A stretch of DNA of 64,000 bases from Candidatus Omnitrophota bacterium (GCA_041650295.1 JBAZLM010000005.1:36592-100591), one strand, 5' to 3'. Counted from the first letter of the stretch, positions 1 to 48,300 are shown. Program-made: numbers and translations. Notes: generated from the sequence alone by a model not told the origin.

Positions 1-2
1 CT

Positions 3-4156: not shown

Positions 4157-4495
4157 ATGCGTGACTTACTTTACAAAAATTTAACTCTTTGTGATCGCGG
4201 ACGCAAAATTATTACTAGCGCCGAAGTCGCCGATAAAGAAGGCGTACACAGTATAGTGCGTCGCCATTTTACTTATTTTATTAAACCAATAGAAAGTGAC
4301 AGCCAGGAAAAACCGACTCCTTATCTTTATGTTTTAAAAGAAAGAAACACTAAAGAAAAAAGAGAGCATTTTTTCTGTAAAATAAAGGGAAGCCTAGTCG
4401 CTAAAAGCAATGGAAAGCTGCTCAACATATCCTTTATCCATACCCTTAGTGTAGAGCTTACTGCCTCACAAAATCAAGTCCAAAATATCGAATAA
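4157..4495 (+). CDS. hypothetical protein (112 aa)
   Basis: ORF only. Lys/Glu-rich with no recognisable motif. Sits alone between plsY and the OMP gene. Confidence 0.35.
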   Translation: MRDLLYKNLTLCDRGRKIITSAEVADKEGVHSIVRRHFTYFIKPIESDSQEKPTPYLYVLKERNTKEKREHFFCKIKGSLVAKSNGKLLNISFIHTLSVELTASQNQVQNIE

Positions 4496-10970: not shown

Positions 10971-13900
10971 ATGTCGAGACACAAGCTGCCAAAAGTATTT
11001 TATCTGCTCATTAGTTTTCTATTAATCTTTGAGCAATCCGGCTTTGCCCAAGTGGCTGCTCAGCTGGATATCTCAGGCAAGCTGGCTGCTTTTGGCAACT
11101 CCATCACTGTAGAGAGGTTTAGGCCGCTACATTTAAGGTATCTACAGTATAACCCCCAAGACAACAACTTCCGCCTGTTAATTGATAAAGGTACCCTTAA
11201 AAACCCTTCAAATACCGATTTAGAACGTACTTCTAAGGAACTACTCAAATACTTCTTTATTGGTCTATCTTTACCTAATGATAAGTTCTGGGTAAACTTA
11301 AGACCAGATGCTGCTGATAGTATTATTGATGATAAACTAGCGCAAACCGATATTGGTCGCATTCTTTTAGAAGCTGATGTCCAGCTTAAAAAGGACACTG
11401 CCAACGCCACATCCCCAGAGACCGCTCAAGGCAAACTCTACTGGGATAAGCTTTATGCTAAAGCTGCAGAGTTATTCGGCTCTCAAAACATCACAATACC
11501 TACACTAACTAGACCCTGGATTGTTCCCGATGAAGTAATCATCCGCGAATCTACTGATTCAGCTTATGTCTACAAAGCATCATTAAAGGTGATGCTAGAG
11601 CAAGACTACCTAAAGAACAGCTCTACCTATAACTTCAAAGACGACCGCCTAAAAGCTTTAAATGAATACTCATCTCAATTAATCCGAGAACTAATTATTC
11701 CTAACCTAACTAAAGAGATCAACACCTCTAAACAATACGCACCACTACGTCAGGTATATTACTCTTTAATCTTGGCTCAATGGTTTAAAGCTCGTAACCA
11801 AACTAAAAACAATCCTTATACTAATTTAATTAACTCTCAGAACCTAACCGGTTTTACCTCTAAAACCCCATACTCTAAAGAAACTTACTTCAACCAATAT
11901 CAAAAATCCTTTAAAGACGGGGAATACAACATCCATACTCCAGTAACTACTCCAACTGGACAAGTAATTAGAAGTTATTTTTCGGGGGGAATGGCGTTTG
12001 GAACAATTTCTCCGATCCGTACTCCTGCCAATAATTCTACTGAAATTGCACAACCTTATGAAGCAAGAATCACGCTTCCTGCTACAGAAGCGCAACAAAA
12101 TGATAATCCGGTTTTTTTCACACCTACGCAAGCTACCGAAAAAATTAACCAGCTAGCAATTACTGGCGATCTACACAAGTTAAAAGCTTATGCCGAAAAA
12201 GCAATAAGGGGAGAGGTTAATCAAGATGAATATCTCCAAGGCTATGCTCAAGAATTAAAAATAATTACCGATATTTTATCTCAAACTCGCCCAGTGGATG
12301 AACTCAATCTTTTAGTTAATCAATTTGACGTAAAAATTAAACAGTTGGATATTTTACGTGCAATCACTGAAATTATTTTACAATTAGAAAATGGAAAAGA
12401 AGGAACAAGTAATCCGCAAAGACTTAAAGAACTACGGGAAGTTTTTATTAAATATCCGGAAATCTCTCAACTTCTTATTAATTATTTTGAAACTAGATTC
12501 AACCCAGAAAAAACTATTGATGCTCGCGGTGAAGAGGCCGGCCAAATTAGGTTAAAAATACTTAAACTAATCGAAGAGCTGGATGGACTTCCAGAACATA
12601 ATATTTTAGCTAAAGCTATCGGCATCTTAATTGCCACAATTAAAACCGACTACTACATTGAAAACAGAACAGAACTTTTCTTAAGAATCGACCCGCGAGC
12701 AATTGTCGCCTACGATGATTCTGGCGCGTTAATCCGCACGCCACCTTATGCACTTATCTGGGTACACGTGCCTTACGGAGCATTTGGGGCACACTCCAGA
12801 TATGCTGATGTGGCTAGAGGAGGCTTGAGAAGTATTCGACCAGAGAGAGTTAATTTATGGAATAAAGTGTTAACCGAATGCGTAGCGCTATCCTTTACGC
12901 AACATAAAAAACATATAGATATTTCAGAAGGCGGATCTAAAGGAGCATTCGTTTATCAAGAAGGCTTAAATTTTGTAGCCTCAGCATTGGCTTACGTTGA
13001 CGGTCTAACTAACTGTATGATTAACGATGAGCGTATTGCCGTTGCTTCAGGAAATATCACCATTGATCCATTAGAACTGGGACCTGATGAAGGAACCGCA
13101 GAATTAGTAGACGTAATTACCGCTTTAGCTTGGTGGAAAAATTTAGACACTTGGAGACTTTTAATCACCGGAAAATCAGCGGTTTTAGGCGGCATATCAC
13201 ATATGAAAAACAATTTAACAACTCCCGCAGTAATGGGCAACCGGGTTACTTCTCAAGGAGTAATGGCACATGCTTTTGAAACAACAAGATACTCACAAGA
13301 AAAAAATATTACCCCAAAAAATAAATTATCGCTCTCAATTACCGGAGGCCTAGATGGGGATGTTGCCAGTGGCCTAGTTGAAATCGCAATCCGTAATTAT
13401 AATGAAGATGTGGCTATACGTAGCTTGGTTGATTTTTCCGGAGTCATGTTTGATCCGGCTGGCCTTGATCACAGCGCTCTATTAGAGATGTATGCGAATG
13501 AATCACAAGCAAAATTATTTCCCAAAGAAAAACTGGGACCCGGAGGTTTTATTGCCGAAGCGCGCAAAGGCTATGCTGAAGAAAACTATACTACCTTAAA
13601 TACAGATTCACTAAAGTATCTAAACACTTATGCTTTAGATCCGCAAGTTTTAGAGAAATTAGGATTGGAAGCAAAATATAAAGAACAAGCCGGACTAAAT
13701 AATGATCAACCATTGATTATGGTTTTAGAAAGAGACAGTCAAAACAGACCATCAAAGATCAAAGTCCACGATGTTTATTTAAGAGACGCAATGTTCTTCT
13801 TAACCAAAGCTGATATGCTCATCACTGGAGGGGGAGTAAAGGACTCCATTAATGACCAAAATTGGGAGCTTTTCTTTGATCAAGAGGGCCGGCCAACTAC

Positions 13901-16900
13901 CCCGGCAATCGTTCATGGCGCAAATGTATTTACCACTAAGAATGCGCTAATTAATCTAGAAAAAAAAGGAATATTTATTGAACCAGATGAAAAAGCTAAT
14001 TCCGTAGGAGTAGAGATCTCCAGCAACGCAGAATTAAATATCAACAGCATTTTTAAACCAGCAGAGATTACTCCAGCAATAATGACTGCATATTTTAAAC
14101 AGGTTTTAGCTAATTCTTTAGAAAACGCTAGATGGAAATTTTTTGCTTTAAGAATAGAAAGCGAAGACAGACCTGAGCAAAGTGCTGCTACCGAAGTTTC
14201 TCCGACCATGTCTATGGAAATAACTGCCCTGGCAGATTTAATTTCAAACATGTTTAGCGACATCCGTAGCGGCTCTAATCCTGAAGCCATAGATCGATTA
14301 AAAAATAACTTTCCGGAATTAGACGCGCTTGATTCAAGCTACCCAACCACATTAGCTCGCCTGCTAGACCGCATGCCTCAAGCCCGGCTACAAGCTACAA
14401 TTTCAAAATTAATTGCCAAAGAGATTGTTTTAAATCTTGGAATGGGAACCGTTGCTCAACTGGCTAAAAATTTAAAAGTCGACCAAAAAGAAATTGTTCG
14501 TCTATATTTAATCGAAGCCGAAAAACTCGATATTTATGAAAAAGTAAAAGCAGTAATCGAAAATCCGCAAAATTTTACTCCTAGTGCTCAAATTAATAAA
14601 TTAAGAGAGTTACGTAAAGAATTAACCAATGCCATTGAACATTCTAAAACCGCGTTAGAAAAAGAGATTAATGATGCCATAGCTCCTTTTGAAAGTGGCT
14701 TAGCCCCAACTGATAAAATACATATCAAAGGTCTATTGAGAAAGTTTTTAATCGAAAAATATTCTGCATTAAAAAATGAACTTATACTCGGAGGTACTTT
14801 TATATCTGCAGCGATGCTCACTAAAAAACAAAGACAAGAACTATTGGGAGCAGAAAACTATGACCAAATTGCCAAAGACACAACTAATGAAGCTGCCGCT
14901 AAAGATACATATGTAATTTTTGACTCAATGGACGGTGGATTAGGTCAAAGCGTAGAACGAAAAAATTACCTTAAAATCAGAGAAGATACTGAAAGTGATT
15001 TTAAAGCTCGTCGTGACGAAAACAACAAAATCGCCTTAGGCGCCAAGGGAACTGACTTAGCTTATGATATCGAACTTAATGGTGAGCATTTTAAAGCCAG
15101 CGTCGCGGAAATTAAACTATTACACATATTGAGCATAACTCAACAATTCGGGAAAGTTACTTTCCAACCATTAGTAAACACCGATTCAGCTCCTTCTTAT
15201 GAAGCTTTACTAAATAGTACTTATCTTTTAGACAAAGCAGACAAAAATAAAACTGACAAAAGAACTTATCGTCAGGTTTTAGCTGAATATGGAATAACCT
15301 TGGACAAAACAAATGAGTTCCTCTACCAAGCTAATCTTCCAATCATTGAATATGATACTAATAAACTAACCAATAAATTTCCCACTCCTGGTGGCCATGG
15401 CCAATGGGGAGTCATGCTTTTAAGTGAGGCTAAAGATATTGAATTGCCTAAAGACGGCAAAACATTAATTCGGGCATTCTACAATGGTGATGGAATCGCT
15501 AATTTTCCAGATGCGGCAATCTTAGGTTGGATGGCTAAAAAGAAGATCGGAATTGTGATGATTTCAACCACAAAAGCCGGTTTAGATAAAAAGGGTGGCC
15601 AAATCGGAATTCAAATATTACCGGATGGCTCAACTCGGGTACAAATGTTAGAATTAGCCCAGGCAAAAAAAATCGGCAAAGCTCATGAACAATTATTTGC
15701 AGCTATCGGTTTACCGGGAGTAGACACAGTCGAAGGTGTTGATGCTCAAGGCAATCCTTATACCTACACCAATGAAGCCGGAGCCCAATACTTTAATACC
15801 AATATTGCTTTAATCAACTATAGTGTTTTATCACCGATTTTTAAGTCTATTTTAGAAATTAAAACTAAAGATATTGATTTCGAGGGTGAAAAGTTAACCG
15901 GAGCAGAGCTATTAGAAAGAATTGTTTCTCCGGATTTAATCGAAAATGTTAAAACCAGGGAAGACGGTAAAAATTATACTCAATTAGAAGGAGCAATTGG
16001 CTCAGCGCTACTTAACTGTAATGCTTTCTTTAGCGCAACTAAAGATCCCCGCATAAAAAAAATCCTTTCTGATGTAATTGGAGATAATAAACTTTTAAGA
16101 ATTGTCAACGTTGATGCTTCTCAAAGAACTAAATTTTTTACCCCAATAAAAAGTGCTTTCGATTACTGGTTCCAAAACTACTCAGACTATTATAAAATGG
16201 ATACTCAAAATTGGACATTAGTTGATGCAAGAGAAGGAGAAGAGCCTCCGCAAGTCGATATTATCTCTTACAAACTAGATAAAGATGGCAAAAAAGTTGA
16301 TGATAAATTTTATAGCGATGTCCAAAACATAATTAACTCTTTTGCTAAAGCATCTACAATTGAATTAAAATCCTTAAATATTGAAGGCCAAATTAAAGCT
16401 GAAAATGCCATTCTTAAGGGAAATATAAAAATTGTTAGTAGTTTCCCAGGAATTATTGATTTAAACAGCGAAGCCAGCCGTAAAGCTTTAAATCAATCCG
16501 GAACCCAACCATTAATCTTAAATAACGTTAGCATCTCTATTGATGATCAAGGCAAAATCACAATGGATGATACATCAGTTAAACCGCCTTCGGTTGGCTC
16601 AACCGGTGAATACGAAATTATGCAAGAAATAATATTAGAAGCCGAAAATGATTATAGTGCTAGCCGAATTGCTCAAGCGGCTCAAAAGATATACGACGGC
16701 TTATTAAGTATGGAAGAAGATGAATTTATTGTTAATCTACCGACTGCCATCAAAATTTTAGAGGCTACATATAATCCTAAATTCGCTCCCATGCTTGAAA
16801 TTCTAAATAATCTAGATAAAAAAGACCATTCAGGCCTAGTAGAAAAATTAAAGAAACTGAATAATGATAGCAGCGCTCGGACTAACGCCGGTGGTATTGA

Positions 16901-17264
16901 TTTCCGCACGCTGCCGATCGTATCCCAAGCCATTAGCAACTTAAGCACTAATATTAATCGCAGCTCAATCAACAGCTTAGCCAAAATTGACTTAAACAAT
17001 GAGTGGCTTGATATTGAAAAGTTAATTAACTCAGGGATTGTTCCTTCAACTAATCGAATCAAAGAATACGTCCAGGCATCTTGTGCTCAAGATAAAACTA
17101 AAAACTGTAAAGATAAGGTTATTAATGGTATCGCTGATATCTTGCGCCAAGAAGAAGATCTCTGTCAGCGCACCAATCCTAAACTTTTAGATATATTAGT
17201 TGTCCTTCAGGCATCTAGAAATAGTAACGAATTGAATCAGGCGTTTCTCGGCAAAGCTATATAA
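10971..17264 (+). CDS. secreted 2097-aa multidomain protein; N-terminal domain paralogous to the giant ORF at 33332; contains large-NAD-GDH-like and UDP-sugar pyrophosphorylase-like domains
   Basis: Signal peptide ending ...SGFAQ. The first ~330 aa align with the start of the 33332 ORF (e.g. FRPLHLRYLQYNP/FRPLELRYFSYNS, WVNLRPDA, EADVQLKKDTA, IPTLTRPWIVPDEVIIRES, VIRSYFSGGM). Downstream domains are described in separate findings. Confidence 0.9.
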   Translation: MSRHKLPKVFYLLISFLLIFEQSGFAQVAAQLDISGKLAAFGNSITVERFRPLHLRYLQYNPQDNNFRLLIDKGTLKNPSNTDLERTSKELLKYFFIGLSLPNDKFWVNLRPDAADSIIDDKLAQTDIGRILLEADVQLKKDTANATSPETAQGKLYWDKLYAKAAELFGSQNITIPTLTRPWIVPDEVIIRESTDSAYVYKASLKVMLEQDYLKNSSTYNFKDDRLKALNEYSSQLIRELIIPNLTKEINTSKQYAPLRQVYYSLILAQWFKARNQTKNNPYTNLINSQNLTGFTSKTPYSKETYFNQYQKSFKDGEYNIHTPVTTPTGQVIRSYFSGGMAFGTISPIRTPANNSTEIAQPYEARITLPATEAQQNDNPVFFTPTQATEKINQLAITGDLHKLKAYAEKAIRGEVNQDEYLQGYAQELKIITDILSQTRPVDELNLLVNQFDVKIKQLDILRAITEIILQLENGKEGTSNPQRLKELREVFIKYPEISQLLINYFETRFNPEKTIDARGEEAGQIRLKILKLIEELDGLPEHNILAKAIGILIATIKTDYYIENRTELFLRIDPRAIVAYDDSGALIRTPPYALIWVHVPYGAFGAHSRYADVARGGLRSIRPERVNLWNKVLTECVALSFTQHKKHIDISEGGSKGAFVYQEGLNFVASALAYVDGLTNCMINDERIAVASGNITIDPLELGPDEGTAELVDVITALAWWKNLDTWRLLITGKSAVLGGISHMKNNLTTPAVMGNRVTSQGVMAHAFETTRYSQEKNITPKNKLSLSITGGLDGDVASGLVEIAIRNYNEDVAIRSLVDFSGVMFDPAGLDHSALLEMYANESQAKLFPKEKLGPGGFIAEARKGYAEENYTTLNTDSLKYLNTYALDPQVLEKLGLEAKYKEQAGLNNDQPLIMVLERDSQNRPSKIKVHDVYLRDAMFFLTKADMLITGGGVKDSINDQNWELFFDQEGRPTTPAIVHGANVFTTKNALINLEKKGIFIEPDEKANSVGVEISSNAELNINSIFKPAEITPAIMTAYFKQVLANSLENARWKFFALRIESEDRPEQSAATEVSPTMSMEITALADLISNMFSDIRSGSNPEAIDRLKNNFPELDALDSSYPTTLARLLDRMPQARLQATISKLIAKEIVLNLGMGTVAQLAKNLKVDQKEIVRLYLIEAEKLDIYEKVKAVIENPQNFTPSAQINKLRELRKELTNAIEHSKTALEKEINDAIAPFESGLAPTDKIHIKGLLRKFLIEKYSALKNELILGGTFISAAMLTKKQRQELLGAENYDQIAKDTTNEAAAKDTYVIFDSMDGGLGQSVERKNYLKIREDTESDFKARRDENNKIALGAKGTDLAYDIELNGEHFKASVAEIKLLHILSITQQFGKVTFQPLVNTDSAPSYEALLNSTYLLDKADKNKTDKRTYRQVLAEYGITLDKTNEFLYQANLPIIEYDTNKLTNKFPTPGGHGQWGVMLLSEAKDIELPKDGKTLIRAFYNGDGIANFPDAAILGWMAKKKIGIVMISTTKAGLDKKGGQIGIQILPDGSTRVQMLELAQAKKIGKAHEQLFAAIGLPGVDTVEGVDAQGNPYTYTNEAGAQYFNTNIALINYSVLSPIFKSILEIKTKDIDFEGEKLTGAELLERIVSPDLIENVKTREDGKNYTQLEGAIGSALLNCNAFFSATKDPRIKKILSDVIGDNKLLRIVNVDASQRTKFFTPIKSAFDYWFQNYSDYYKMDTQNWTLVDAREGEEPPQVDIISYKLDKDGKKVDDKFYSDVQNIINSFAKASTIELKSLNIEGQIKAENAILKGNIKIVSSFPGIIDLNSEASRKALNQSGTQPLILNNVSISIDDQGKITMDDTSVKPPSVGSTGEYEIMQEIILEAENDYSASRIAQAAQKIYDGLLSMEEDEFIVNLPTAIKILEATYNPKFAPMLEILNNLDKKDHSGLVEKLKKLNNDSSARTNAGGIDFRTLPIVSQAISNLSTNINRSSINSLAKIDLNNEWLDIEKLINSGIVPSTNRIKEYVQASCAQDKTKNCKDKVINGIADILRQEEDLCQRTNPKLLDILVVLQASRNSNELNQAFLGKAI
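12480..14100 (+). other. large NAD-specific glutamate dehydrogenase (Bac_GDH)-like domain inside the 2097-aa protein
   Basis: Motifs RFNPEKT, VARGGLRSIRPERV (cf. ARGGLRWSDR), EGGSKGAF (catalytic Lys region, cf. VGAKGGF), ITGGLDGDVASG (dinucleotide-binding GG-DGD-G), HGANVFTTKNALINLEKKGIFIEPDEKANSVGVEISS (GDH C-terminal GANxF...ANxGGV motif). Confidence 0.6.
14900..15850 (+). other. UDPGP-family (UTP-glucose-1-phosphate uridylyltransferase-like) domain inside the 2097-aa protein
   Basis: VIFDSMDGGLGQSVERKNY (cf. LNGGLGTSMG nucleotide-binding loop) and PTPGGHGQWGV (cf. PGHGD) about 160 aa downstream. Confidence 0.5.
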
Positions 17265-26847: not shown

Positions 26848-26853
26848 ACTTTT

Positions 26854-33331: not shown

Positions 33332-36300
33332 ATGAAAACTAAAAATAGCAAAGCTAAAAGAATCTTATCGTTGGTTTTATGTTTCGGTTTAATTTTACAG
33401 CAAATGGGTTTTGCCCAAATCGCTAGCGAATTAAATATAGCCGGCTATTTGGCTAAGTCTAATGCCAATCTGGTCCAAGCCAAATTTAGACCATTAGAGC
33501 TACGCTATTTCTCCTATAACTCCTCAAATGACAATGTTAAGCTACTTGTAGACAAAGGAGATCAGAAAGAATTAAATAGTCTCCAGGTGCAAGAACAATC
33601 TAAATCCCTATTAAACTACTTCTTAATTGGTATCACTCTACCCAACAATACATTCTGGGTTAACTTAAGGCCAGATTCTGAAAACCAAATTATTGATCAA
33701 TATTTAGAGAAAACTGATATCGGCAAGATTATGTTAGAGGCCGACGTGCAACTCAAAAAAGACACCGCCAGATTTACTTCTCCGGAAACCTCTGAAGGCC
33801 GCGTCTACTGGAATAAGCTTTATAAAAAAGCCGAGCAACTTTATGGAACTCAAAATACCACTATTCCCACATTAACTCGTCCCTGGATTGTTCCTGGCGA
33901 AGTAATCATTAGGGAATCAAATGGTAGTGCTTATGTTTACAAAGCCGTGCTCAAGGTCATGTTGGAACAGGACTATTTAAAAAATTCTACCACTTATAAT
34001 TTTAAAGATGACCGCGCCAAAGCATTAAATGAATATTCTAGTCAATTAATTAAAGAGTTAATTATTCCTAATCTAACTAAAGAGATAAACTCTAGCAAAA
34101 GATACGCCGCATTAAGACAAGTTTTTCATTCGCTAGTTTTAGCACATTGGTTTAAATCACGTTTTACCGGTAAAAGCGGTAGCTACGCCGCCATGATTGA
34201 CACTAAAAATCTTACCAATTTAACTTCACAAACAACCTGGTCAAAAACTACTTATTTTAAACAATACCAAGAATCATTTAATAAAGGTGAGTACAACGTC
34301 CAAGAACCGGTTTATACTCCTAGCGGCCAAGTAATCAGAAGCTATTTCAGCGGTGGTATGCAATTTGGAATGAATATGAAATCTCCTCTTTCCCCAAAAG
34401 GAGAAATTGGGATAATAAGCACCGACAATCCGAATCCACCAATAACACCAGAATCAGTGGTGTTTACAAGTAACGATGGGAAGTCTTTAATCGAATCTAC
34501 AATTAACGAAAACGCCCGTTCTCAGGCACCTCCAGTTGTCCAAGCTCAAACTCCTGAAGAAGCAAAAGCAGTACGTTTAGCCGAGCTAGTTCAGTTTGCT
34601 CTGGATCTACAGACAAAGTATCATGGTAAAGCCACTACCGGTAAATTTACCATCTTCTCCGGTCCTCCAGGCGGTGGTAAGAGCTTAGCTTGGGACGGTT
34701 TTGTAAAGGTAATGTTAGAGGCTCTAGTAGCTAAGGGCCAAATTGTTATCGATCCTAAATTATCCAATGATGATAACCTATTTGCTTCCGGACTATTTGA
34801 TAAATTTATTCTTTTTCATACCCGAGCGATGCGTCCAGGAGAAAAACAGGGAGGAATTAAGGATAGTAGCGGAGTAATTCAATCAGGAAATTATTATTAT
34901 AGAACGCCTGAACATTTAGAAAAATTAAAATCAGAAGGTAAAATTATTATTACTTTAGTTAATAATCAACCTCAAGGTTTAGCCCTCTATGATTTTGAAG
35001 ATACCTATACATTTAACGGAGAAACTAACACTGCATTTGTTAGCGGCCTTGCCTCTAAATTAAAACAAGATAAAATCACTATTCTAGAAGGTGGCTTAGG
35101 ATGGTTTGATGAGTTAAATAATGTATTTAAAGATATCGAAACCGATGAACAGCTAAAAGCTACCTTTGAAGGAGTAGCTAATGACGGTTTAAACAGTATC
35201 TTCATCTGTCCATTTACTGATGAGCGGATTATGGAAATTGAAGATAATGTTCAAGTTGAATATGCTCGCGCAGATAGAGGATCTAAAGAAGGCTTAGCCA
35301 TACATCAAGCCGAATACGAAGAAGCTATTGCTATCAGAGGCAGGCTAAAAGCTAAATTAGAATCTCTCATTGCCCAAGGTTCTGATGCTTTAAAAGCAGC
35401 CCTACCACAACTTCAAACTCAGTTCTTTAATATGGACAAGCAGTTCATGTCAAAGGTAGAAGTTGCTCAAGAAGATGCCTTTGGCTATGTTGCCCCAGAC
35501 AAGATCACTTCAGAAGATGCTTTGAGAAAAGCCAGCTTCCAGGAAACAATTGCTAGAATTCATTCTCGTGAAGTAAAAGAAGCCAAGAGTGTTATTGAAA
35601 CTCTAACAAAATTAATCAATGCCGGTGATCTAGAAAAGATCCAAGAATATCTAAATGATGCCAAAGCAATCAGCAAAATACTATATGCTCCGGTTACAAA
35701 TGACGAGTTAATAAAACGTGCCGATGAAGCAGCCCAACAGGTTATCCGCCGTGTTGATTATCAATACATCCTGAATAATGTTTGGATTGTGGATGAAGCA
35801 GAACGTAATATCTTTCAACGTGATTTAGGTGCAAGATTTGCTGAAGATGCCATCGGACCATTAAAAGGAAGGTTTGCTCCGGGCAAGAGTCCTGCTGATG
35901 CATTACAAGTTATTACACAGTCACAATATTTACAGGGTCTTCTAAAGGAAATAGGCTATTTTACATTAACGGATTATTTAAAGGCTTATGCAGAAGAAGC
36001 TCCAAGCTTAGGATTTGAACCTTTGGCTAAGTATCCTAGAACAACGGCTAAACGTGATTTATATACAACTAAAAATTCATTAGTTAATCAAGGAGTTTTA
36101 AGAATAAAAAATCCAGGAGTTAAAGGAGCGCCTTATGAATTTATACTCACAGAAAAAGGTGCCCAAGCTATTTTAGCTAAAGAAGAACAAAAGACCAAGT
36201 TAATTAGTAATTTTGTTACAGTATTAAATAATTATTTAAATAAACACGATTCTAGTAATCCATTAAGTACAAACAATCCTTTTCAAACAAATAATAATCA

Positions 36301-39300
36301 AGGGCCAATTAATTCTCCAGCGATTCCTCCTGCTCCTGTCTCTGCTGGACCGTTAGGGGCGGTGGTGGGTGGAATGGGTGGCCAAACTGCCAGGGCTAGT
36401 GCTTCTTCTGCGATTCATGAAAGAGAAAATTATTTAGCCAGAGCTGAAGAGATGGCTAAATTGATAGATCAATTAATAATTAGATCAAATAATAAAGTAA
36501 ATCCAATTTATACAGGAACAGATCCTCCTGCCGGTAGCATGGGTAGTTCACTCCCAGACTATATCCATGCGTTAATTATGGGAGAAAAAATGTTTGGTGC
36601 TTTAGTAGCAAATGTTTCAAGTAGTGAAGCAGATGCAGCAAGAAATGCAGTTGGAAACTTAAAATTTATGGCGAGCAGGCCAACAGTGGCTGCTCTCCAT
36701 AAATTCCTAAGCGTTGCCAATAGAGCCAAAGGTGCGGCGAAATTTAGCCAAATCCCAGGTTCTATTCGTGCGTATGGCTTCCGCGCCAAGTTTGTAAATG
36801 CCCTCAAGAAGTTAATCGTTATTCCTCAATTAAAAGATCTGGGTAACTCTGAATGGAATGAATTTAAAGGGAATAATCCTACACTTTTAGGTAGAATTTT
36901 TGGTTTTTGTGCAAATGATTTACGTCATTTATTTGGCAAGAACAAGAAATCATCCGATAAAATTATAATTCCGTCAGATGTCAGTCCGGATACTAGGTTG
37001 ATATTAGAACAGTTGCAAAGGATGAATGATAAAATCAATGATGTAAAAACAATAGCTGAAGCCGCAGCAGAAAAAGCCGAAGCCGCTAAGGATTTAAATG
37101 ATAAGTTAAAACACAGATTTGATGATAAATCAAAGTTGCCTTTTGATGATTGTGTTATCGGGATGTGCTATGATTTACTTTATGAAAAATTCTCACCGAA
37201 AAAAGTAGAAGCGCTGGTAAACGAGATTGATAAAGAATTTCGAAAAATAACTGGCATAAAAACCGGTAGTTATGAGGTCCCTAATTTAAATATTTTAGTT
37301 AATGTATTTAAGAATGTAACTGGCCTTGATTTAAAAATTCATAAAGTGAATAAGAATGCTCTTGTTGATTTAGTTCAAAAATATCCCGCTGAAATTGGTT
37401 TAATTGCTAAGCTTCAAAATGGTAAGCATCATGCTTTCACTGGCATGGGTTTAACTGATAAGGGAAATATTCGAATTATGCAAGAGAACTCTGGAGATTT
37501 TAAAGCGGCTCAAGAGATCTCGATTAATAATTTACCAGAAGAAGTGATAGTTGTTACACTTGCTACTTTAAAAGATCAGCAGCTTATTTTAAGTAAAGAG
37601 CTTACTGAAAAAGAGAGAAAAGAAATTAAGGAGATCGGTGGAATAACAGCTGGAGCAGAGGCTGGTACAGGGTCTAGTACAGCCACAGGGGCAGCTGCTG
37701 GAGTGGGATTAAATGGAGCAGCTAGTTCTAATAAAGGTAATGGTAGAGCTGATGGTGGTCAAATTAATCAATCAGTAGTAGGTCTTAGCGGTTTAAGCAT
37801 GACAGGAAATTTAGCGATAAACGTTCCGCAGGTTTCATTCTTTAATCATTTAGGGGCAAATGGTATTCGCGGATCACCGTCATTAACTACAAATCTGATT
37901 AATTTGTTCCGCACTAATTTTGCTACTATTAAAATAGTTGCTCCTAAACTAACTACAAATTTTGCTAAAATCCAAGCCTCTGTAAAATTAAATTACAATA
38001 AAGGTATTAACGCGGCTAGAACTCATTTCGTTAGATCTAGCGATAAGAATGTACGACTAAATAATCCCATCTCTAATACAGAAAAGAAGGCTAGCGCAAC
38101 TGATAATCAGCCGGCGATGGTTAACGTTAATGGCAAAAAAGTTATTGATGGTGACCTTTCGAATAGAACCATTAATCCTAATGACTTAAATAAAGTTGGA
38201 AAGACAAATGAAGAGATTTCCATAGCTACCTCTTCTGATTTAGCAAATAATAATATTCGTGCTCCTCCGACAGTTGCCGCTAAAATTACAAAAATCATTC
38301 GCTCAGTTATTGTTTTCCTCGCTACGGTTATTTCAATTATCTCTGTTACCACTCTGCCAGTTTTTGCGTTAAATAACAACTCTATTGTTACCGGACTTAA
38401 ATCAGCAAACATAATCATGTTTGTGATTGCTGCTGTGATAATTCCTACAAGGATTATTAAAACGACTATTGCTGAAAATAAAGCGGCAAGATATGGTTTT
38501 AGAACGATAGAATTTGATGCTACGGGTAAAAAGTATCTTAAATCGTTAAAAATTCGCGAAGTTAGAAATAATAATGAAAATGGTCAAGCACCGGTTGGGA
38601 TAGCAGTTGTTTTTGCAGCTATTGCGATTATTGGTGCATTATTCTGGCATTATGCGGCTTTTTCATTAGCCGATTTGATTGGCCTGGCTGGAATAGCAAT
38701 TTTTGGTATTGTAGCTATAGCTGCTTTTATCGGTAGCGTAGCAATGGAAAGTGTAGATAATAAAACTGCCGCAGATTTTGGCCGCAAAGTAATTAAGTTT
38801 GCCACGGTTGGTATTGTATTTTTTGGAGCACTTTATTTATTTGCTACTGCTAAAATTCCTGCTGCAGTAGAAGAGGCTATCCGTAACAGTTCATTACAGA
38901 GAGTATTTGATTTCTTAACTGTAAAAATAGGTGGCGGATTAACTGCACCTTTAGTTTTTGGAGCGGTATGGGGAAATTTAAATAATCAGGATCAGCCTTC
39001 TGCAAAACATCAGCCAAGCAATTCTTTACCGGCACAAAAAATTAATCATCATTATTTCAAAAAGATTATTGCTAAGTTATTTGGTTTAAATCATAAAGTA
39101 GCTCCTGCTAAGAAAATTTTACCTGTTTCCAACACCCAGATAAATAAAAATAAAATTTTAGTAAATGATCAACTAGGTCTTGGGGTAACTAATTTTGCCA
39201 AGGCTCCTCCGGTTAAGAGTCCGATTGTGTATTCAGCAAAAACAATTAACTCAACAGTTAACGGAGGAAAAAATGGTAAACTTACTAAAAATTCAAGAAT

Positions 39301-42300
39301 TCAAAGAAACAATGGCCGAATTAGACAATCAGTACAAAATCAGAAGATTGCAAGAGATGCGACAGGTAGCAGTGCTAGAAATGTTAAATCTGAAAAGCAT
39401 GCTAGCAGAAAAACCAGCAAATTAAATCGTTTTTACGCTTGGTTAAAACAGCCTAAAATAGCCAAGTGGGTTAAACTATTAATCGTAGCTAGTTTAATTG
39501 GAGTGGCAACCTTAGTTTTTGCTACCCCGGAGATGGCGGCCAGGGTAAGTAGTATAAATAATGAAGCCATAAGTAACGCAGCGTACTATTTAAGTCCAAA
39601 GGTATTTGTAAAACACGCTATATTTTTTAGTTTTCTGATCTGGGTCAACCGCAGGGGTTATATATTCTTTCCTACATTCGCTTTCTTGTTCGGGATGAAT
39701 CAAGCCAGTCATTTAAATCTAAGATTAATCGGTACACCTTTCTTTATGAATTGGTTCTATAATTGCCTAGATGTTGCTTTATATGCTAGCTTAATATTAG
39801 CTTTTATTGAGTTTTCTAAGGCTGCTAATAAAATAGAGCATTGGGGTAGAGAAACTATTGGTATTTGGCCGGTAAAGATTAAAACAATTGCCAAGGTTGC
39901 GTCTTTCTTTTTCGTAGCTTTAACCGTGCAAGAATTAATGAGCGCAATGTCGTTTACCCGTTTTATGTTAGAAACTTTTTATACTGCGCAAAAGCTCACC
40001 TTTGATCCTTACGATATCCTTGCGTATTTAGGAGGAGGTGTAGCATTTTTCGTCTTAACTAGCATAATGTCAATTTCTAGGCGCCAAGCATTTATTCGAA
40101 AAAATCAGTTAAAGAAAAACAGTGTTAGAATGCAAAAAGATCAAAATAAGGATAATAAAAATAATTTTTTAACAGAAAAGAGAGCGATTCCTGAAGATAA
40201 TAAAACTACTACTTTACATAGTTATGTGTCGGTAGCGGTAATACCTTCAATTGTATTATCGTTAAGTTTTTTTGACGTGGCAGCTAATATCAGCGCTGCT
40301 TTTGTTGCAGTTACGATTGTTGGTGTTATTGGTTGGGGTATTTATCGGTTGGGTAAACTTATTCATAAAATCCTTATATTAAAAGCTAATTCTAAACAGG
40401 ATTTAAATAATGCTTTTGACGATAAAAATGACCCAGCCCGTCCTTTACCTGGTCAGCCGATGCCTACGAGAGAAGAAGCAAACACCGAAGTAGCTAGACA
40501 TGATTTAACGCAATTTGAAACAATTTCCGAAGATCGAGCGGAAGTAAAATTAGCTATAGAATATTTACGTTCGATTAATGAAAATCAATTAGCTCATTAC
40601 TTAGAATATTTAGCTAAAGCCGGATTAATTCGTGCTGGACCATTAGCCGGCTTCTTAGCTACTACTTATATTTTAGATCAAGATAATGATTTTATTCTCC
40701 TGTCCAATCTCTACCCTGCAGAGAATAGCGTTTCAGATTATGCCGCAAGTTTAGTTCATGAGATCGGTGCCATTTTTAAATTCAATCATCAAGAAAATCA
40801 GACACGAGAAGATAATTTCTATACTTGGTTAGCGGCCAAAGTACTTGAGCCGAATTTTGGCGCTGTAGTAAATACTCGTCTTACAACCGAGGCCGCTTCT
40901 GATAATTTTGTTGCCGATAAGAAAGCGCTTCCTTATAATTTCTTCTTCTCAAAATCGAATCGTTCTCGTGGCAATATTTTACCTGCCACTAAACCTTATC
41001 CTGATGCTAAACAATTACACCGCAATCATTCCCCAAAATATCTTTACAAAGATATCAAAGGCAAAGTTAAAGTGTTCTCTATTAAAGACCAGTCGATTCC
41101 TAAATCACAACACGCAGCGGTTCAAGAGATCAATGAAGAAGAGTTAGTGCAATTAGCATTAACCGGCGGATGGAAGGTAGTCGTAGCTAAAGATTATGAT
41201 CAGATGACTTATGCTTCTTTATATTTAGTGATTAAACTTATGCATCTGGCGCAAAGAGAATTTGCTATGGGGTTGGCTACCGGCGGCACCACAGAGTCAC
41301 TGCGCAAGGCGATGGGGTTACTCGATTATAGCCGCAAGATCTTAGATGGTCTTTCTCTTCCTGGGGATAAGGTAAATAAATGGTCTACCTTAGATAACTA
41401 TTATTGGAATAAGCTTGCCGAGATGATTGATGTATTGCTTTCTAGTTACACTCAGGAGCAGGGGTATATGCTTTTAGGGAATATCTATGGTAAAGATAGA
41501 ATAAACTATGATTATTTTGTTACGCCTTATGATAAAACCGACTTAAGTTTAGAGCAGGTAGCAGAAAATTTCCGCCTGCGCATGCGGGTATTTTTAAATG
41601 AGACTTATAGAATATTGGTGCAGTTGCACGGCATTGGTTCAGACGGCCATGATGGTTTTAACGAGATCTATCCATCAATGCCTCTTTTACGTCCAGATTA
41701 TGATTCTGAGCTTTTAGATATTACCAAAGTTCAGAATATCGGTCATTTCTTACCCAAAGGTTTTCATCCTTTCTTTTTAAGATTTATGGCGGATAATAAA
41801 ATTTTTTATATGTCTAGACTCATCGATGTTTTAAATCGTATGGGTTTTGAAAGAATCGCCGGGTATTATCCAGAGTCTAAATACCAATTTGCTTCAGAAA
41901 AAGAGTATCTAGATGAGGTAAAATATCTATTAAAATATTTTAAACTTACTCCGGCTCAGTCGATTACTCAGGGCTCAGGAGATATTCTTGAAAGGACCAA
42001 TAATCCGGATTCTTTAAATCTCTACATGAGTTCAGGAGCGCATAAAGCTACTCCGACTTATGATGCGGTTGAAAAAGAACCGTCTTTATACAATACTGCT
42101 TCTGCTATGCAGCTACAGGCTAATTCTATACTTATTGTAACGCTAGATGCCGCAGTAAAACTTGATCAAAGTAAATGTTTCTTCTTTGTTCCTCAGGCTT
42201 ATAATCCGCTTTTAGTTAGTGCCAAAGCCATTGAAGAGACTTGGCAAGAGACTGCTGAAGGCAGAAGGATCCATGCATTATTAGAAGAGAAGCATGGCAA

Positions 42301-45300
42301 GCATTCCTATCCGGCCACTATGCCAATAACCAATAAAGCAGATAAAGCTCCTACTCCTAGACAATTTAATAAAATTCTGCAGGCTCTTGGTGGAGAGCAA
42401 GCTTTAGCCAGCAAAGGAATAACTTTAAATATAAATAATGTGGTAATTAGCCCAGCATTAGAGGCTCCGGCGGAAGTCAGAGCAGGAGTATTATACGTTA
42501 ATCCTAATATCTTACGTGGTCCTCCGAAACAATTACGCGTAATCTTTGAAGGACATGAACTACTCCACTTAATTAATCCTACCGCTACTGAACAAAGAGT
42601 ACAGATATCTACAATTAATTACTTAGTAAACCATCATCGTCTTAATGCCCACATTAAATTTTTAAATAAGAATAAATTTGGTTTGAGAGCAGATATTACA
42701 TGGTTAACTACTTTAAATTTAAAATCTAAAGAAACAGCTGCTTCTAAAGATATTAAGTTTGAAAGGCTAGCCAAAGAAGATCTGCGATCTATGGCTAAAT
42801 ATTTAAGTCCTATTCTTGCTTTTGGTATCGTATTGTGTGTTGTGCCAGAAACTATTCTCGGGGCTTTAATGGCAATTCCTTTTATCGGTCTAGCAGTTTG
42901 GCGGTTAGTATTTCCTACTAATTGGCGCTTATGGACAGTAGCTACACTTAATTGCACAGATCGTCATTATCAAATTGCTTATAATAAACTCATTAAAACT
43001 AAAAATAAAAGAACAATTAAAGCATTAATTAAATGTTTAGAGGGAAAAAATTTAAATACTTGTTTAATTGCAATTAATATTCTTGGCAAAATTTATTCTG
43101 TAAAAACAAAAGCTAATAAATTTGATCAATTAGTAGTTTTATCTTTTATTGGCTTGGCACATAAGCTGTTAAATCCAAATGAAGAGATGTTTGCCTATTC
43201 TCGTTTTAGTATCTTTAAAACTATTATAAATACTTTATCTGTTTGGGTAGATACAGAAAAAACAATATTTGAAAAATCTAGTAATGAATATTTAGCAATT
43301 TATGAATTTTTTAGTAAATTCTTAGCTTCTAATGAGACAATACAAAATTCTGGATTTGAATTTTTAGCTTTACGGGAATTCTGTAAAAAATTTCCGGATC
43401 AGACGCCAGCTCATTGTGTTAGTAATTTAGTTAATTACGTTCTCGTTGGCAGTCCAACTGATCGTTCTGCTAATGGCGTCAGTACTGAAGAGGTGGAAAA
43501 GGCCATCGCCAAATTTGGTGGAATAGAAGAAATCTTAAAGCGAGAAATTACTAAATATACTGACTATATTAATATAATTTTTGGAATTAATATAGTAGAG
43601 CAAAAATTAAAGATTTCTTCAGAGATTATAAATTGTTTAATAGCTGCTTGTGGGGTACATTTTGCGCAAGCTCCTCCAGAATGGCATATCGGTGCTGCTA
43701 TTGGAATTTGTAAGCGTGAAGGTAAAGAAGAGCCAGTAATTATTATTACACAAGCAACTTCTGCCGATGCTATTGCTCATGAAATTTGCGCGATCTTAAT
43801 CCCTGGCTTAACACATGAAGAAAATTTAATAGTAAGTAAAAGAGTTAATTGTTCATTAGCTGCTTATGACTCTACCAATGCATTAGACAATTCTTTAAAA
43901 GGACGAGTAGAAAAAGTCTCAGGGGCTTTGGCTAGACTCTATAATCTGGATTCTCGTGAATTGCGCAATGTGCTTAATTTGGCTCCGGCTTGGGAGAAAG
44001 TTTTTAATGAAGAGATTCTTCCGGAGATTATTGATGGATATCTGCAGTATTTATCCTCTCCAAATGATAAAAAGCCTGCAGCGGTAGTTTTAATTACCGG
44101 AGAAGGCGGAATCGGTAAAACTACTGTAGCTTTGTCCTTTGATGAGATTGCGGAAGCGGCTTTAAAAAGAATTCGTGATGAAAAAAAATTATCAAGACAA
44201 TCAAATTTAGTAAGAGAGATTGCTTTCGATGATTATATTTTACAAAAAAACGATCGCCAAATTGATCCGTTAACTGGAGTTGCTACTGAAGATCCTTTTA
44301 AAAAATTCGAGTATGATCGTTTCTTAAAAGATATGCTAGCTTTGAGGCAAGGACAAACTATTTATAAGCCAATTTATGATTTCAATCTGCGTGGTCGACT
44401 TAAATTTGCTCTAAATCAAGAAAATCAGATAGTTTTAATGGTGGGTAATGAAGAAATTTTAGTTGGGGTTAATGTAGAAACCCAAGAGCCGTATTTCTCT
44501 TATCAAAATAAGCAGCAAGATTCATTAATGTTGGGTACTAATGAAATTAAAGTTGAGTTAAAAATATATCGTAATACTGAAAATAATATTGTTATTAATT
44601 TGCGAGACAGCGAGCATGTTTTTCGATTTGATGAAAAAGGTAAAGTTAATGTTAATGTTGGGGATGTTACACAAGTTTTAGAAAAAGGTAATTTAGTTGA
44701 AGCTTTGGAGATGATTGTTCCGCAGGGAAAAGTTTATATCGTTGAAGGTATTTTGGCTTTACAAAGCGATAAATTAAACGCTAAGTGTTTAACGGTTTAT
44801 ATTACAGGAGGTTTTGAGGCACGACTTTTACGTATGCTTAGCCGTTCGATGGGTGAAAGTGGAAGAAAGAACACGATTCAGGAGTTAGTTGAGCAACGTT
44901 TAAGATTAATAAAACTTGAAGAAATGCCTTACATTTGGCCAGTGAAAAAGAAGGCCCGTTGGGTAGTTACTAGTTTTAGTCGTTCAGAAGCTGTTTATAT
45001 GCTTTATATTCGTGGTCAACTAAATTGTCCTAATAAGAGAATAGTGCAAATTTTAAAAAGCTTAGGAGTTGATTGTCATGCACTAGTTGATGCATTGAAG
45101 AATATTTATCAGAATGAGGTGGCGGCTCGCTTAAGCGGTGGGCAGGGAATTCCTAGTGCTATTGAAGGAACAGCCTTTCATGTTTTTATGGATAATTGTG
45201 GTTTAGTTATAAAAGTGCCCCGCGCTGAATTTTTAAAGGAATTTGAAACAAATTTTATTAAGTTTTATAATACAGTGCTTAAAACTAGATTAGGTGGATT

Positions 45301-48300
45301 GATTGTTCCAGGAACAATTATTGATTTAAATAAGCTAGGTGTGGATATTAGCAGAGTAGTTGACGGTGATTTTTATAAATTTGAAAAGGTTCTTATTCAA
45401 AATAAAGTAGTAACGCTTGGTCAAAGATTAAATGATCTCTTAAAGGTTCAAGATATAGAGGGAGTAAAGAAATTAATTGATCAGTATTTTATTTTGCAGC
45501 AAGCGCTTTGGCGAAGGGGTGTTTGGGACAATAAGCCTAAGTTTATGGAGAAATATGGTTTTATTCCTTTAGATGGAGTAGAACAATTAGTGGTGGTTGG
45601 GGTTGATGGCTTAAAAGATAGGATAGAAGAATTTGATCCTACTTTATATATGAATAAAGATTTGCGTCCGCAAAATCTGCCGGCAGAATTAGAAGATTAT
45701 TATGATCTGAAGGTTAAGGAGATGATTTTTAGTAAAAATGACTTTTTAACTTATTTTGCCAGTGGATTGAAAGAGTGTCAAATGGCTCCAGATATTTCGG
45801 ATATTGAAATTGGTCGTAAACAAATGGATCATATTGTCACTACATTAAGGCAAGCGATGTTACAAAAATATCGTAAATTTTTTGGTTGTCTTAATTATAG
45901 TAGGGATAATCCGCTAATTTATTGGATAAAGTTTTATGTGGATACAGTTTATGCTAAAGGGGTAGCGCAGCAAGTTTTGTTAAATGCTTTTTATGAACAA
46001 GTTATTGAAGATCCCCAGATGTTAGATGAAGTCTCTAAAACTACTAGCAAACTTCAGGAAAAACTTAAAGAATTTAATCATAACGGTCTAGTCAGTGATT
46101 CCGGGCTTTTAGTGATGGCTGAAGAAATGCTTTATATTAAGAATGAATTTAATCATCAGAAAACGGATTCAACTGTTGGCGCTTTAGTGGGTGCTCAAAC
46201 TAAGACAACTGAAATTACCAATTATAGTGTTGAATTAGTATCTAAGCCAAAAATTACATCTGAAGAAATTGAAAAAATTCTATCAACTATGCGCGGTATG
46301 GCGGATGCGATGGCAGTTTTATGTACCGGTATTGAAGGATCTACTTATAAAGATGTTCCCGGTTTGCTTATTGATATTCAGAAAATGGAAGAACTTTTTG
46401 GGATTATTGCTGAGCGTGTAAAATCTACGGATAAAAATTTTGCTATTCATCCGGAGCTAGTTAATATTCGCGTGGCGGATGATGCTTTGGAAACTGTTCC
46501 TTCTTTAGAGGCATTAGAGACAGATCTCAAAGTTGGTATTTATCCGATTGCGGCTAATCCGATACATCTATCGCATATATTAGTTGGAATCGAAGCGATT
46601 GCTATTGGCAAGTGTGACGTGGTTTATTTTGATGTTCAATCCGGTGGGTATGTGCTTAAACCGATTTTAACCGCGACTGAAAAATATCGATACGAATTAA
46701 GTATGATACTTTTAGCTTTACTTGCTCCGTTCTTTGGTTTTGCGATAAATATTTCTAAAGACGGCGAAACGGATATTTTTAGAATTCAGAAGCTTAACCT
46801 TAATCAGAAAAGGGTTAAGTATGTTTATATTGTAGGTAGTGATCATTATCATCGGTGGGTAGAAAAAGACGCTTCGGATAATTTAATTCGGGGAACAGAA
46901 GAATATAGGCAGTATGTTTTAGTGCACAACGGCAAAGAGCCGACTCCGGATACAATTCAGAAGATGGAAGATAAATTAGTTGAATTTGGGGTGGATGCTT
47001 CGGAACTGGCCATATTATTTGTGGAGCGCATCGGTGAAGAAGCGCAAGAAACAATTGCTAGTTTATTAGATATCAGCATGCTTCCTCCGGTCGGGATGGC
47101 TTCTTCTACGGCGATTCGTAATGCTTTCAAGGCAATTGAAAGAATGACTAAGGATGAAGGCAATTTAAGCGCAGTGGAATTAGCAGAATTGCAAAAAGAT
47201 TTATTGAAAGGGTTAATTTATCTGCCGTATGTTAGCTACCAGTATATTATCGACCATTTGGATTATTTAGATATGCTGGTGCATCCTGAGGAATATGATG
47301 GGAGCAAGCCGGCTGATCGTGCGGCTAATGGCGCAAGTGCTAAAAGAGTTGATGCGGCTATTAATGATTTTGGTGGAATAAATGAAATTTTAAAGAATGA
47401 AATTAAGGATATTCTTTATGATAGAAATATTATGTTAGGTATTAATAAGGCGGCCTATAGCATGGATCAGGATCCTACGGCAATATATAGCGCGTTGATT
47501 GCGCGAGGAGTACATTTTGCTCAGGCACCTCCGAATTGGAAAATTGGCTCAGCCATTGGTATCTTAGATAAAGATGGAAAAATAGAATTGGTAGTTATCC
47601 TCTCTAAAGATGCAAATCCTGAAGAAGTTGCCCATGAAATCCGCGCTGTATTAATTTCAAGCTTAACTCACCAAGAAAATCAGTTATTAAGATCTAGTGA
47701 CAAAGTAGTTAAGAATATGTTTACTCATTCGATTGCTTTTCGTGGCTTGTTAACTCCCGAAGAAGACGCTGCCGTTGAATATTTTGATGACCCGATTAGC
47801 CCAGCTAAAAAAGGAGCAGTTCCCCTAAGCACACTTAAAGAGTATTCAGCAGCTGAAGAAATTATTTTTAACATCAAAGATATTGAATTAAAGAATCATG
47901 GTGCGCTGATACTTAATGAAGATTACCTGAAAAAATTTCATATTTATTTCTATCAGACTACTAGTAGTCCATCGCCTAATGCCAGCGTTGATTTTCAATA
48001 TATGAATATTTTTGTTTTTGCTAAATCTGCAGAAGAACTCAACGCACAGATTATTGCTAAAATATTAGTGCATGAATTAGTTGAATATGTTTTGGTTGAA
48101 CATTACTTAACAAATAATCAGTCAGCTAATTTTTCTGTAGCGCATCAGCAAGCCCTAGCAACAGTTAAGGATCTTGATGCCTTTATTTTAGCGAATAAGA
48201 AAACGAATAATTCTAGTGAAGCGCAATCACTATCTGATAAATTGATAGGTCAAAATAATGGCGCGGTAGTAAATACCTGTGGTAAAGATTTTCCTGTGAT

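Follow-up and report, generated by a model that had tools for sequence, protein, structure and literature searches.

The window analysed here is a stretch of 64,000 nucleotides from Candidatus Omnitrophota bacterium (GCA_041650295.1 JBAZLM010000005.1:36592-100591). One of its genes encodes a protein of 2097 aa, the length given in an initial annotation of the window, in which two enzyme units lie between conserved ends. An N-terminal head (aa 1–345) is followed by a unit of the large NAD-glutamate dehydrogenase (L-GDH) family, a UDP-sugar pyrophosphorylase-like (UDPGP-like) unit and a tail (aa 1965–2097), and the two units are interchangeable enzyme cargo modules of a head–cargo–tail carrier. 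An identical protein from a metagenome-assembled genome (MAG), on a 153-kb contig, is held at NCBI under the name 'NAD-glutamate dehydrogenase domain-containing protein [Candidatus Omnitrophota bacterium]', and the GDH domain call as such is already present in the automated annotation. The UDPGP-like unit, the occurrence of head and tail in thousands of Omnitrophota proteins and the presence of the same head on a giant open reading frame (ORF) had been overlooked in the initial annotation.

That annotation had placed five motifs, in the order found in the large bacterial NAD-GDH family, between nt 12480 and 14100. All five were recovered in this order at nt 12813–14012. The range therefore holds for the motifs, while the unit to which they belong is wider (aa 382–1235, nt 12114–14675; Table 1). 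The annotation had also proposed a check with the Bac_GDH and ELFV_dehydrog profiles, and both gave matches above the gathering cut-off in a Pfam scan of the 2097-aa protein: ELFV_dehydrog with E = 2e-13 (51 bits against a cut-off of 23.4; best stretch aa 928–1025) and Bac_GDH_CD with E = 6.6e-10 (38.6 bits against 22.8; aa 530–664). GDH_HM3 (E = 3.7e-6; 27.4 bits against 24.6) and UDPGP were the other profiles above their cut-offs, and GDH_C stayed below threshold (17.1 bits against 26).

Homology searches were run with aa 431–1320 as the query, and the shared unit was placed by BLAST at aa 382–1235. The relatives fell into three tiers. The closest were 13 Omnitrophota proteins with 39–56% identity over about 850 aa, followed by about 24 GDHs of roughly 1,000–1,060 aa from Desulfobacterales and others (25–27% identity, E = 1e-18 to 1e-44) and by actinobacterial 180-kDa NAD-GDHs (E about 1e-9 and weaker). 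A profile built from the unit and its homologues and compared with the PDB matched L-GDH180 of M. smegmatis (7a1d) with E = 9e-220, and the small hexameric GDHs with about 1e-13. The AlphaFold2 model of aa 382–1235 had a pLDDT of 94.7 and a pTM of 0.91. In Foldseek comparisons it aligned with crystal and cryo-EM structures of L-GDH180 (9hv6, 7jsr and 7a1d) over about 880 columns (E about 1e-27, TM 0.64–0.68), whereas small GDHs were matched at only E = 1e-12, well behind L-GDH180. Motifs, profiles and fold agree far beyond chance. The homology to the large bacterial NAD-GDHs is thereby borne out, and by profile, fold and active site aa 382–1235 is a member of the L-GDH family.

With L-GDH180 of M. 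smegmatis (PDB 7A1D, 7JSR and 9HV*; Pfam PF05088) the unit shares the HM3, catalytic and helical C-terminal fold over these columns as well as identical glutamate-binding, NAD+-binding and catalytic residues. It differs in its overall sequence, which is about 18% identical, and in its surroundings, being fused to a UDPGP-like unit and a tail and preceded by a signal-like N-terminus and a head in place of the ACT-like/PAS segment. The three ACT-like domains, the PAS domain and the HM1–2 segment (PF21075, PF21079, PF21076, PF21077 and PF21073), which are recorded for the actinobacterial L-GDH180 matches, had no Pfam match in the 2097-aa protein. In L-GDH180 the ACT-like and PAS domains have a regulatory role and form part of the tetramer interface. 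The protein could not be assigned to the 180-kDa class because this segment is missing; an unrelated head occupies aa 1–345 instead.

To place the active site, the residue map between mL-GDH180 and the GDH of Clostridium symbiosum (CsGDH) of Lazaro et al. 2025 was transferred through the alignment. The unit is identical to L-GDH180 at all 18 glutamate, NAD+ and catalytic positions checked. Across the 13 Omnitrophota relatives 16 of these positions are invariant, G793 and D821 each differing in three of the 13. As the active site is invariant despite an overall identity of 39–56%, selection for catalysis is indicated. Judged from its residues, the unit is very likely to be an active NAD+-dependent glutamate dehydrogenase. 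With the whole active site intact, conversion of glutamate and NAD+ to 2-oxoglutarate, NH4+ and NADH would most likely be retained.

The initial annotation had favored a repurposed or binding-only fold, that is, a catalytically dead GDH-like region with a binding or structural role in an extracytoplasmic protein. The predicted location, with NAD(H) absent outside the cell, speaks for such a role, as do the identity of only 18% to the characterized enzyme L-GDH180 and the absence of the ACT/PAS segment. Nevertheless, the inspection of structure and of catalytic and cofactor residues suggested in the same annotation showed the L-GDH180 fold in the model, with the catalytic Lys and Asp and the NAD+ residues kept. 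A dead fold is made highly improbable by the full agreement with L-GDH180, by its persistence at 16 positions in homologues of 39–56% identity, and by a Gly-rich loop and an NAD+-favoring acidic residue at position 7 that are both retained. Judged by a refuting condition of the annotation itself, loss of the catalytic residues, the binding-only idea fails.

Table 1. Features of the head–cargo–tail gene, active-site residues of its L-GDH unit with their counterparts, and the giant ORF of the same family (positions counted from the first nucleotide of the window)
Feature	nt	aa	Strand	Counterpart (L-GDH180 / CsGDH)	Basis or role
Whole gene, head-cargo-tail protein, 2097 aa	10971..17264		+		ORF call; identical NCBI MAG protein
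Head module	10971..12005	1-345	+		homology searches; 60-76% identity across members
Signal-peptide-like N-terminus: n-region MSRHKLPK, h-region VFYLLISFLLIF, c-region EQSGFA, putative cleavage between GFA and Q	10971..11048	1-26	+		rule-based
L-GDH unit: helical motifs incl. HM3, catalytic domain (glutamate- and dinucleotide-binding halves), helical C-terminal domain	12114..14675	382-1235	+		BLAST, profile, model
GDH_HM3 helical motif	12297..12506	443-512	+		Pfam
Glutamate-binding half with R616, Q644, K647, catalytic K657 (nt 12939-12941) and catalytic D706 (nt 13086-13088)	12813..13100		+		alignment
Motif ARGGLRSIRPERV	12813-12851	615-627	+		sequence match
Motif GGSKGAF	12930-12950	654-660	+		sequence match
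Gly-rich loop ITGGLDGDVASG on to acidic 'position 7' residue D821	13338..13433		+		alignment
Motif ITGGLDGDVASG (dinucleotide-binding Gly-rich loop)	13338-13373	790-801	+		sequence match
HGAN...ANSVGVEIS segment with N985, V1014 and S1017	13914..14021		+		alignment; nicotinamide-ribose and gamma-carboxylate contacts
Motif HGANVF	13914-13931	982-987	+		sequence match
Motif ANSVGV	13995-14012	1009-1014	+		sequence match
R616				R780 / K89	gamma-carboxylate; Arg replaces CsGDH Lys89, as in L-GDH180
G617, G618				CsGDH G90, G91	conserved glycines after R616
Q644				Q803 / Q110	glutamate-binding pocket
K647				K806 / K113	alpha-carboxylate
K657				K816 by our count / K125	catalytic Lys, GGxKG motif; our own assignment, outside the map of Lazaro et al. 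2025
D706				D888 / D165	catalytic Asp
H744, T760				L-GDH180 H923, T929	nicotinamide
G792, G793, G796					Gly-rich loop
D797, V798				L-GDH180 D964, V965	phosphates and nicotinamide amide
D821				L-GDH180 D983	acidic position 7, favors NAD+
N985				L-GDH180 N1115	nicotinamide ribose
V1014				V1144 / V377	glutamate-binding pocket
S1017				S1147 / S380	gamma-carboxylate
UDPGP-like unit with flanking linkers	14676..16670	1236-1900	+		Pfam
Pfam UDPGP core	15252-15671	1428-1567	+		Pfam
Tail module: GGIDFRTLP motif (nt 16890-16916), helical domain of ~90 aa, three semi-conserved Cys	16863..17261	1965-2097	+		homology searches
Giant ORF, >10,222 aa, open at window end	33332..64000		+		ORF call; same family

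The second cargo unit was identified by its match to Pfam UDPGP (PF01704; E = 3.6e-11, 42.9 bits against a cut-off of 22; E = 2.4e-9 in the scan of the 2097-aa protein). It contains the motifs DGGLGQS, PGGHGQ, NGDG and DKKGGQ. The PGHG, NGD and DKKGG motifs aligned with those of the UGPase of T. brucei (3gue), and the GGLG loop upstream of them was read by eye. Over 94% of its length the unit is 39% identical to stand-alone Omnitrophota enzymes of 603 aa, annotated as UTP--glucose-1-phosphate uridylyltransferase. Two of the UDPGP homologues (P0189 and P0221) have a signal-like N-terminus followed by a 'LNLPAPG' motif. Together with a 'DTLAP' motif in the GDH clade (P0121-P0127), this suggests that further head types exist in Omnitrophota enzyme carriers.

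In a word-index homology search more than 1000 proteins shared with the query only aa 1 to about 345 and about 1970–2097. The head, always N-terminal, is 60–76% identical to that of more than 100 listed members, and the tail (aa 1965–2097) is 30–61% identical to members' C-termini. Between these ends lie unrelated middles, among them methyltransferase, GNAT, metallophosphoesterase, FHA, DnaJ, UbiB/protein kinase, HATPase, GGDEF, PPDK_N, radical SAM/SPASM, B12-binding, HAD, NUDIX, NDK, CheR and HEAT/TPR domains. The GDH and UDPGP units were shared neither with the other 119 top head-family matches nor with 80 fetched loci. In the tail itself, a variable linker joins the GGIDFRxLP motif to a helical domain of about 90 aa. 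It closes 170 of 210 sampled members of 1.1 to 7.4 kaa, those without it being mostly short, and stands at the end of 36 of the 51 complete ORFs from the fetched loci. Alignment of tails showed an invariant Asp in GGIDF and an invariant Glu. Three cysteines of the tail (C2038, C2046 and C2065) account for half of the six in the whole protein. The tail may contain a metal or disulfide site.

The size of the family was estimated with a HMMER scan of the head profile against 1.84 billion representatives clustered at 50% identity. It returned 7,519 clusters at E<=1e-3, of which 5,854 reached E<=1e-30. Among the 150 best matches listed, 148 had the head at the N-terminus or close to it. GTDB species representatives held 442 head-bearing loci, sometimes several per genome. 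The 80 loci kept from these came from Omnitrophota/Omnitrophica (64), 'uncultured Planctomycetales' MAGs (12), unclassified 'bacterium' MAGs (three) and a Thermodesulfovibrionia MAG (one). As judged by these profile matches, the head–cargo–tail family is almost confined to Omnitrophota and comprises at least 5,800 clusters at 50% identity. Relatives of head or tail were found neither in Pfam (E<=10) nor in NCBIfam or the PDB, and profile searches against PDB sequences gave noise only. Moreover, neither head nor tail was described in the giant-protein papers, the survey of Seymour et al. or the wider literature searched, nor was a signal-peptide-bearing GDH from Omnitrophota.

A tblastn search of the window for further copies found the head of the giant ORF only and no second tail. 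Lying 16 kb downstream, this head comprises the first ~350 aa of the giant ORF (nt 33350–34411) and is 61.5% identical to that of the GDH carrier. The remainder of the giant ORF includes PRK/uridine kinase, NUDIX, acetate kinase (E = 4e-107) and radical SAM-SPASM domains, HEAT repeats, a complete four-domain phosphoglucomutase (PGM) and a GT5 starch-synthase domain, with clusters of transmembrane helices at about aa 1650–1846, 2043–2338, 3153–3196, 4454–4476 and 7142–7194. Its composition matches that of the 'Archaeovorin' giant proteins (West-Roberts et al. 2023, 10.1101/2023.11.21.568195). The GC skew is near-neutral over the first 10 kb of the ORF and lies between +0.15 and +0.32 from about nt 44000 to the end of the window (64000), all within the ORF.

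The N-terminus of the GDH carrier, MSRHKLPKVFYLLISFLLIFEQSGFA followed by QVAAQ, has an n-region charge of +3, a hydrophobic core of 12–13 residues, G at position -3 and A at -1. A Sec (SPase I) signal peptide is organized in this way: its n-region is positive, its hydrophobic core spans 7–15 residues, and positions -3 and -1 hold small residues. Similar N-termini occur on two envelope-type proteins, CtpA and a TPR protein of 989 aa, that are encoded in the window, as is lepB. Across the head family, the c-region [EQ]Q[ST]GFAQ shows a conservation of at least 90%. A hydropathy scan detected no other hydrophobic segment in the 2097-aa protein. The position behind a signal peptide that the initial annotation had reported is thus upheld by rule, and its cofactor paradox is real, because NAD-GDH homology, a signal-peptide-like N-terminus and the lack of any other membrane segment coincide.

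To compare how often such N-termini occur, a simple rule was applied: a 10-residue stretch with a mean KD of 2.3 or more had to lie within roughly the first 45 residues and be preceded by a net positive charge. The hydropathy and signal-peptide rules are crude and no substitute for trained predictors. By this rule a signal-like N-terminus is present in 195 of 205 head-family proteins and in 12 of 14 members of the Omnitrophota GDH clade; the mid-size GDHs (0/24) and the L-GDH180-type proteins (0/5) have none. The two exceptions in the clade are P0132, a partial sequence, and P0126, which is short with an apparently truncated N-terminus. Most of the clade lacks the head and is signal-like all the same, which makes this a conserved, lineage-specific property of these GDH units and not an accident of one gene. 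For comparison, DeepTMHMM called signal peptides in 48% of long Omnitrophota proteins according to a 2026 preprint.

A later transmembrane segment was absent from 174 of 210 head-family members in the crude hydropathy scan. At least one strongly hydrophobic segment occurs in about 15% of the sampled members. In about eight it directly follows the head (aa 344–470), so that the membrane would separate head from cargo. Proteins with such segments include P0034, P0042, P0043, P0054, P0066, P0118, P0273 and P0325, with radical SAM and B12-binding cargo in P0066.

Other routes to the envelope were considered and rejected for the 2097-aa protein. A lipoprotein was ruled out by the lack of a lipobox Cys, a prepilin leader by the wrong order of motif and hydrophobic segment, and sortase anchoring (LPXTG) by the tail motif, LPIV[ST]Q. 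The tail is predicted to be helical and not beta, which excluded an autotransporter or type IX secretion C-terminal domain, and the lack of a Haemagg_act match excluded a TPS domain. A MARTX architecture was ruled out in that there are no tandem repeats, no CPD (Peptidase_C80) and no RTX Pfam match, and a Sec-type N-terminus instead.

The overall reading proposed is that active L-GDH-type and UDPGP-type enzymes are held in a Sec-exported head–tail carrier at the cell envelope or host-contact zone, with a probability of roughly 0.5. Export is taken as the most likely course because the head starts with a Sec-type signal peptide and no membrane segment follows; that the carrier actually leaves through Sec is, on this evidence, somewhat probable. 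Export would be followed by cleavage between GFA and Q, and the conserved head and tail may then mediate docking or assembly at the envelope or contact zone. Enzymes exported in this way would be limited to metabolites and cofactors from a host or prey cell. The site of action and the source of substrates and cofactors in a host or prey are tentative. Omnitrophota include a cultured predator of archaea, and the phylum has been described as predatory or host-dependent. Peptides mapping to the giant ORF of Velamenicoccus archaeovorus were reported to be about three-fold higher in cells attached to larger cells. The proposed reading is consistent with such a lifestyle and with this increase.

Several observations weigh against this reading. 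NAD+, UTP and sugar phosphates are normally unavailable outside the cytoplasm. For cargo elsewhere in the family, function or cofactor acquisition following Sec export is difficult to envisage; examples are radical SAM/SPASM, B12-binding, GGDEF, DnaJ, CheR, NDK and PPDK domains and the acetate kinase of the giant ORF. No signal peptide was found in the stand-alone UDPGP homologues. When the hydrophobic core is extended through EQSGFAQVAA, it reaches a KD19 of 1.56, near the score of a transmembrane helix. The models of head and tail had a pLDDT of 56 overall and no PDB match, and their folds were not recognized. Neither family gene in the window has a type II secretion or type IV pilus-like locus beside it; upstream of the giant ORF, the remaining scanned ORFs of 100 aa or more were housekeeping genes, Wood-Ljungdahl genes or without a Pfam match.

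The principal alternative is that the carrier is not exported at all. The N-terminal segment would then be an uncleaved anchor or no membrane signal, and the head would scaffold the cell's own metabolic enzymes on the cytoplasmic side. In its favor, both units have kept their nucleotide-dependent active sites intact, and the cargo of the family is overwhelmingly of cytoplasmic type, Fe-S and B12 enzymes included. In the giant ORF the same head is combined with a complete PGM and an acetate kinase of very high conservation (E = 4e-107), the stand-alone UDPGP homologues dispense with a signal peptide, and about 15% of members have a transmembrane-like segment, directly behind the head in about eight. 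Moreover, West-Roberts et al. (10.1101/2023.11.21.568195) caution that extracellular predictions for metabolic and glycolytic domains of giant Omnitrophota proteins may be wrong. Nevertheless, the Sec organization is canonical, with a core of only 12–13 residues and small residues at -3 and -1, and the positive-inside rule places everything after the N-terminus outside the cytoplasm. In 174 of 210 members there is no hydrophobic segment that could bring the cargo back. A similar N-terminus is found on Omnitrophota GDHs with a different N-terminal domain and never on GDHs of other phyla, as would be expected of a selected export signal. A cytoplasmic or membrane-tethered carrier is considered less likely than an exported one, yet is a serious competitor.

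An architecture in which conserved ends enclose a mosaic of enzymes dependent on cytoplasmic cofactors could also be that of a translocated multi-enzyme effector. In that case the head and/or tail would, after export, deliver the cargo to the host or prey cytoplasm. There the GDH and UDPGP units would draw on the NAD+, glutamate and UTP of the host, draining or rewiring its metabolism. The far stronger conservation of the head than of the cargo is expected for a part that engages shared machinery, and a predatory or host-dependent phylum would offer the targets. Nevertheless, the 2097-aa protein showed no domain for pore formation or autoprocessing (CPD/C80, C39) and no repeat domain, no secretion-system genes lie nearby in the window, head and tail give no structural hint of translocation, and there is no experimental precedent in the phylum. 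Such an effector is improbable. Somewhat less so, although still unlikely, is the broader proposition that head and tail form a phylum-wide, previously undescribed platform for export, docking or delivery that puts competent cytoplasmic-type enzymes outside the cell's own cytoplasm. Its cargo would be GDH and UDP-sugar pyrophosphorylase here, and acetate kinase, PGM, radical SAM and glycogen synthase in the giant paralogue. The result might be an enzyme coat at the host-contact zone or enzymes inside the prey, in either case an externalized or injected metabolism running on host cofactors.

For the proposed Sec-exported carrier, the nearest comparisons are with other GDHs. The mid-size enzymes (about 1,000–1,060 aa, L-GDH115-size; e.g. 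'GdhA3' of Desulfamplus magnetovallimortis, P0148) are, at 25–27% identity, nearer than L-GDH180 and share GPDEGT and ANK/SxGV motif variants with the 2097-aa protein; unlike it, they have no head, tail or UDPGP unit, and none of the 24 has a signal-like N-terminus. The Omnitrophota GDH clade (P0121-P0133) shares the ~850-aa unit at 39–56% identity and has signal-like N-termini in all full-length members but one. Its proteins, of 1,230–1,430 aa, differ in having a shorter N-terminal region with the 'DTLAP' motif for the head, and no tail or UDPGP unit. Two of them are annotated at NCBI as 'NAD-glutamate dehydrogenase [Candidatus Omnitrophica bacterium]'.

By functional analogy the architecture also recalls MARTX toxins, cellulosomal enzymes and spidroins, in which conserved terminal modules flank a variable middle. 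The conserved ends serve delivery in MARTX toxins, docking in the case of dockerin, and assembly in the N- and C-terminal domains of spidroins. MARTX toxins leave the cell by type I secretion and not by a Sec signal peptide, have glycine-rich repeats at both ends and are autoprocessed by the CPD. No sequence or fold relationship to any of these systems was detected, and repeats, CPD and dockerin are absent here.

The Archaeovorin-type giants (West-Roberts et al. 2023) come from the same phylum, are likewise mosaics of cytoplasm-type enzyme domains and pose a similar localization paradox, and the giant ORF of the window shares the head of the GDH carrier. The latter differs in its size (2,097 aa against more than 10,000), in having no transmembrane helices after the N-terminus and in lacking an upstream secretion or pilus-like locus. 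Neither Omnitrophota giant-protein paper mentions GDH. The enzyme type and enzyme-laden Omnitrophota proteins are already known; new are the definition of head and tail, an L-GDH cargo whose active site is intact, and a clean topology with a signal peptide only. In the published giant-protein work the placement of enzyme domains is unsettled because the transmembrane-helix predictions are unreliable. With the same head, two apparently active enzymes and no other membrane segment, the 2097-aa protein reduces the question of topology to whether its N-terminus works as a signal peptide.

If the carrier is exported, a conserved NAD+-GDH outside the cytoplasm implies host-derived cofactors at the contact zone or inside the prey, and with them a new parasitic or predatory metabolism. 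If it is not, signal-peptide predictions across the phylum are misleading, and the family is a new scaffolding of cytoplasmic enzymes in ultra-small cells. Either way, head and tail represent large families without a counterpart in Pfam, NCBIfam or the PDB, the head alone accounting for at least 5,800 clusters at 50% identity. The GDH-carrier gene overturns nothing alone; it offers a small, tractable test case for a large uncharacterized protein family.

The neighboring genes in the window include lepA, lepB, pgsA, plsY, gatA, gatB, ctpA, tsaD and a Wood-Ljungdahl cluster, and are consistent with an anaerobic bacterium of about 36% G+C. The accessory part of that cluster (nt 25516–30440, plus strand) comprises two CdhD/AcsD-like genes, a RACo corrinoid activator and a CooC/ParA-type ATPase. 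An acetogen-type anaerobe is the probable source, and the presence of an acetate kinase within the giant ORF is notable in this light. Divergent from the GDH-carrier gene, and separated from it by an AT-rich spacer of 245 bp, lies an ORF of 1066 aa (nt 7525–10725, minus strand) with no Pfam match and no signal-like N-terminus. Further downstream, a protein of 167 aa (nt 24012–24515, plus strand) consists of a bactofilin domain fused to a C-terminal HTH_17 DNA-binding domain.

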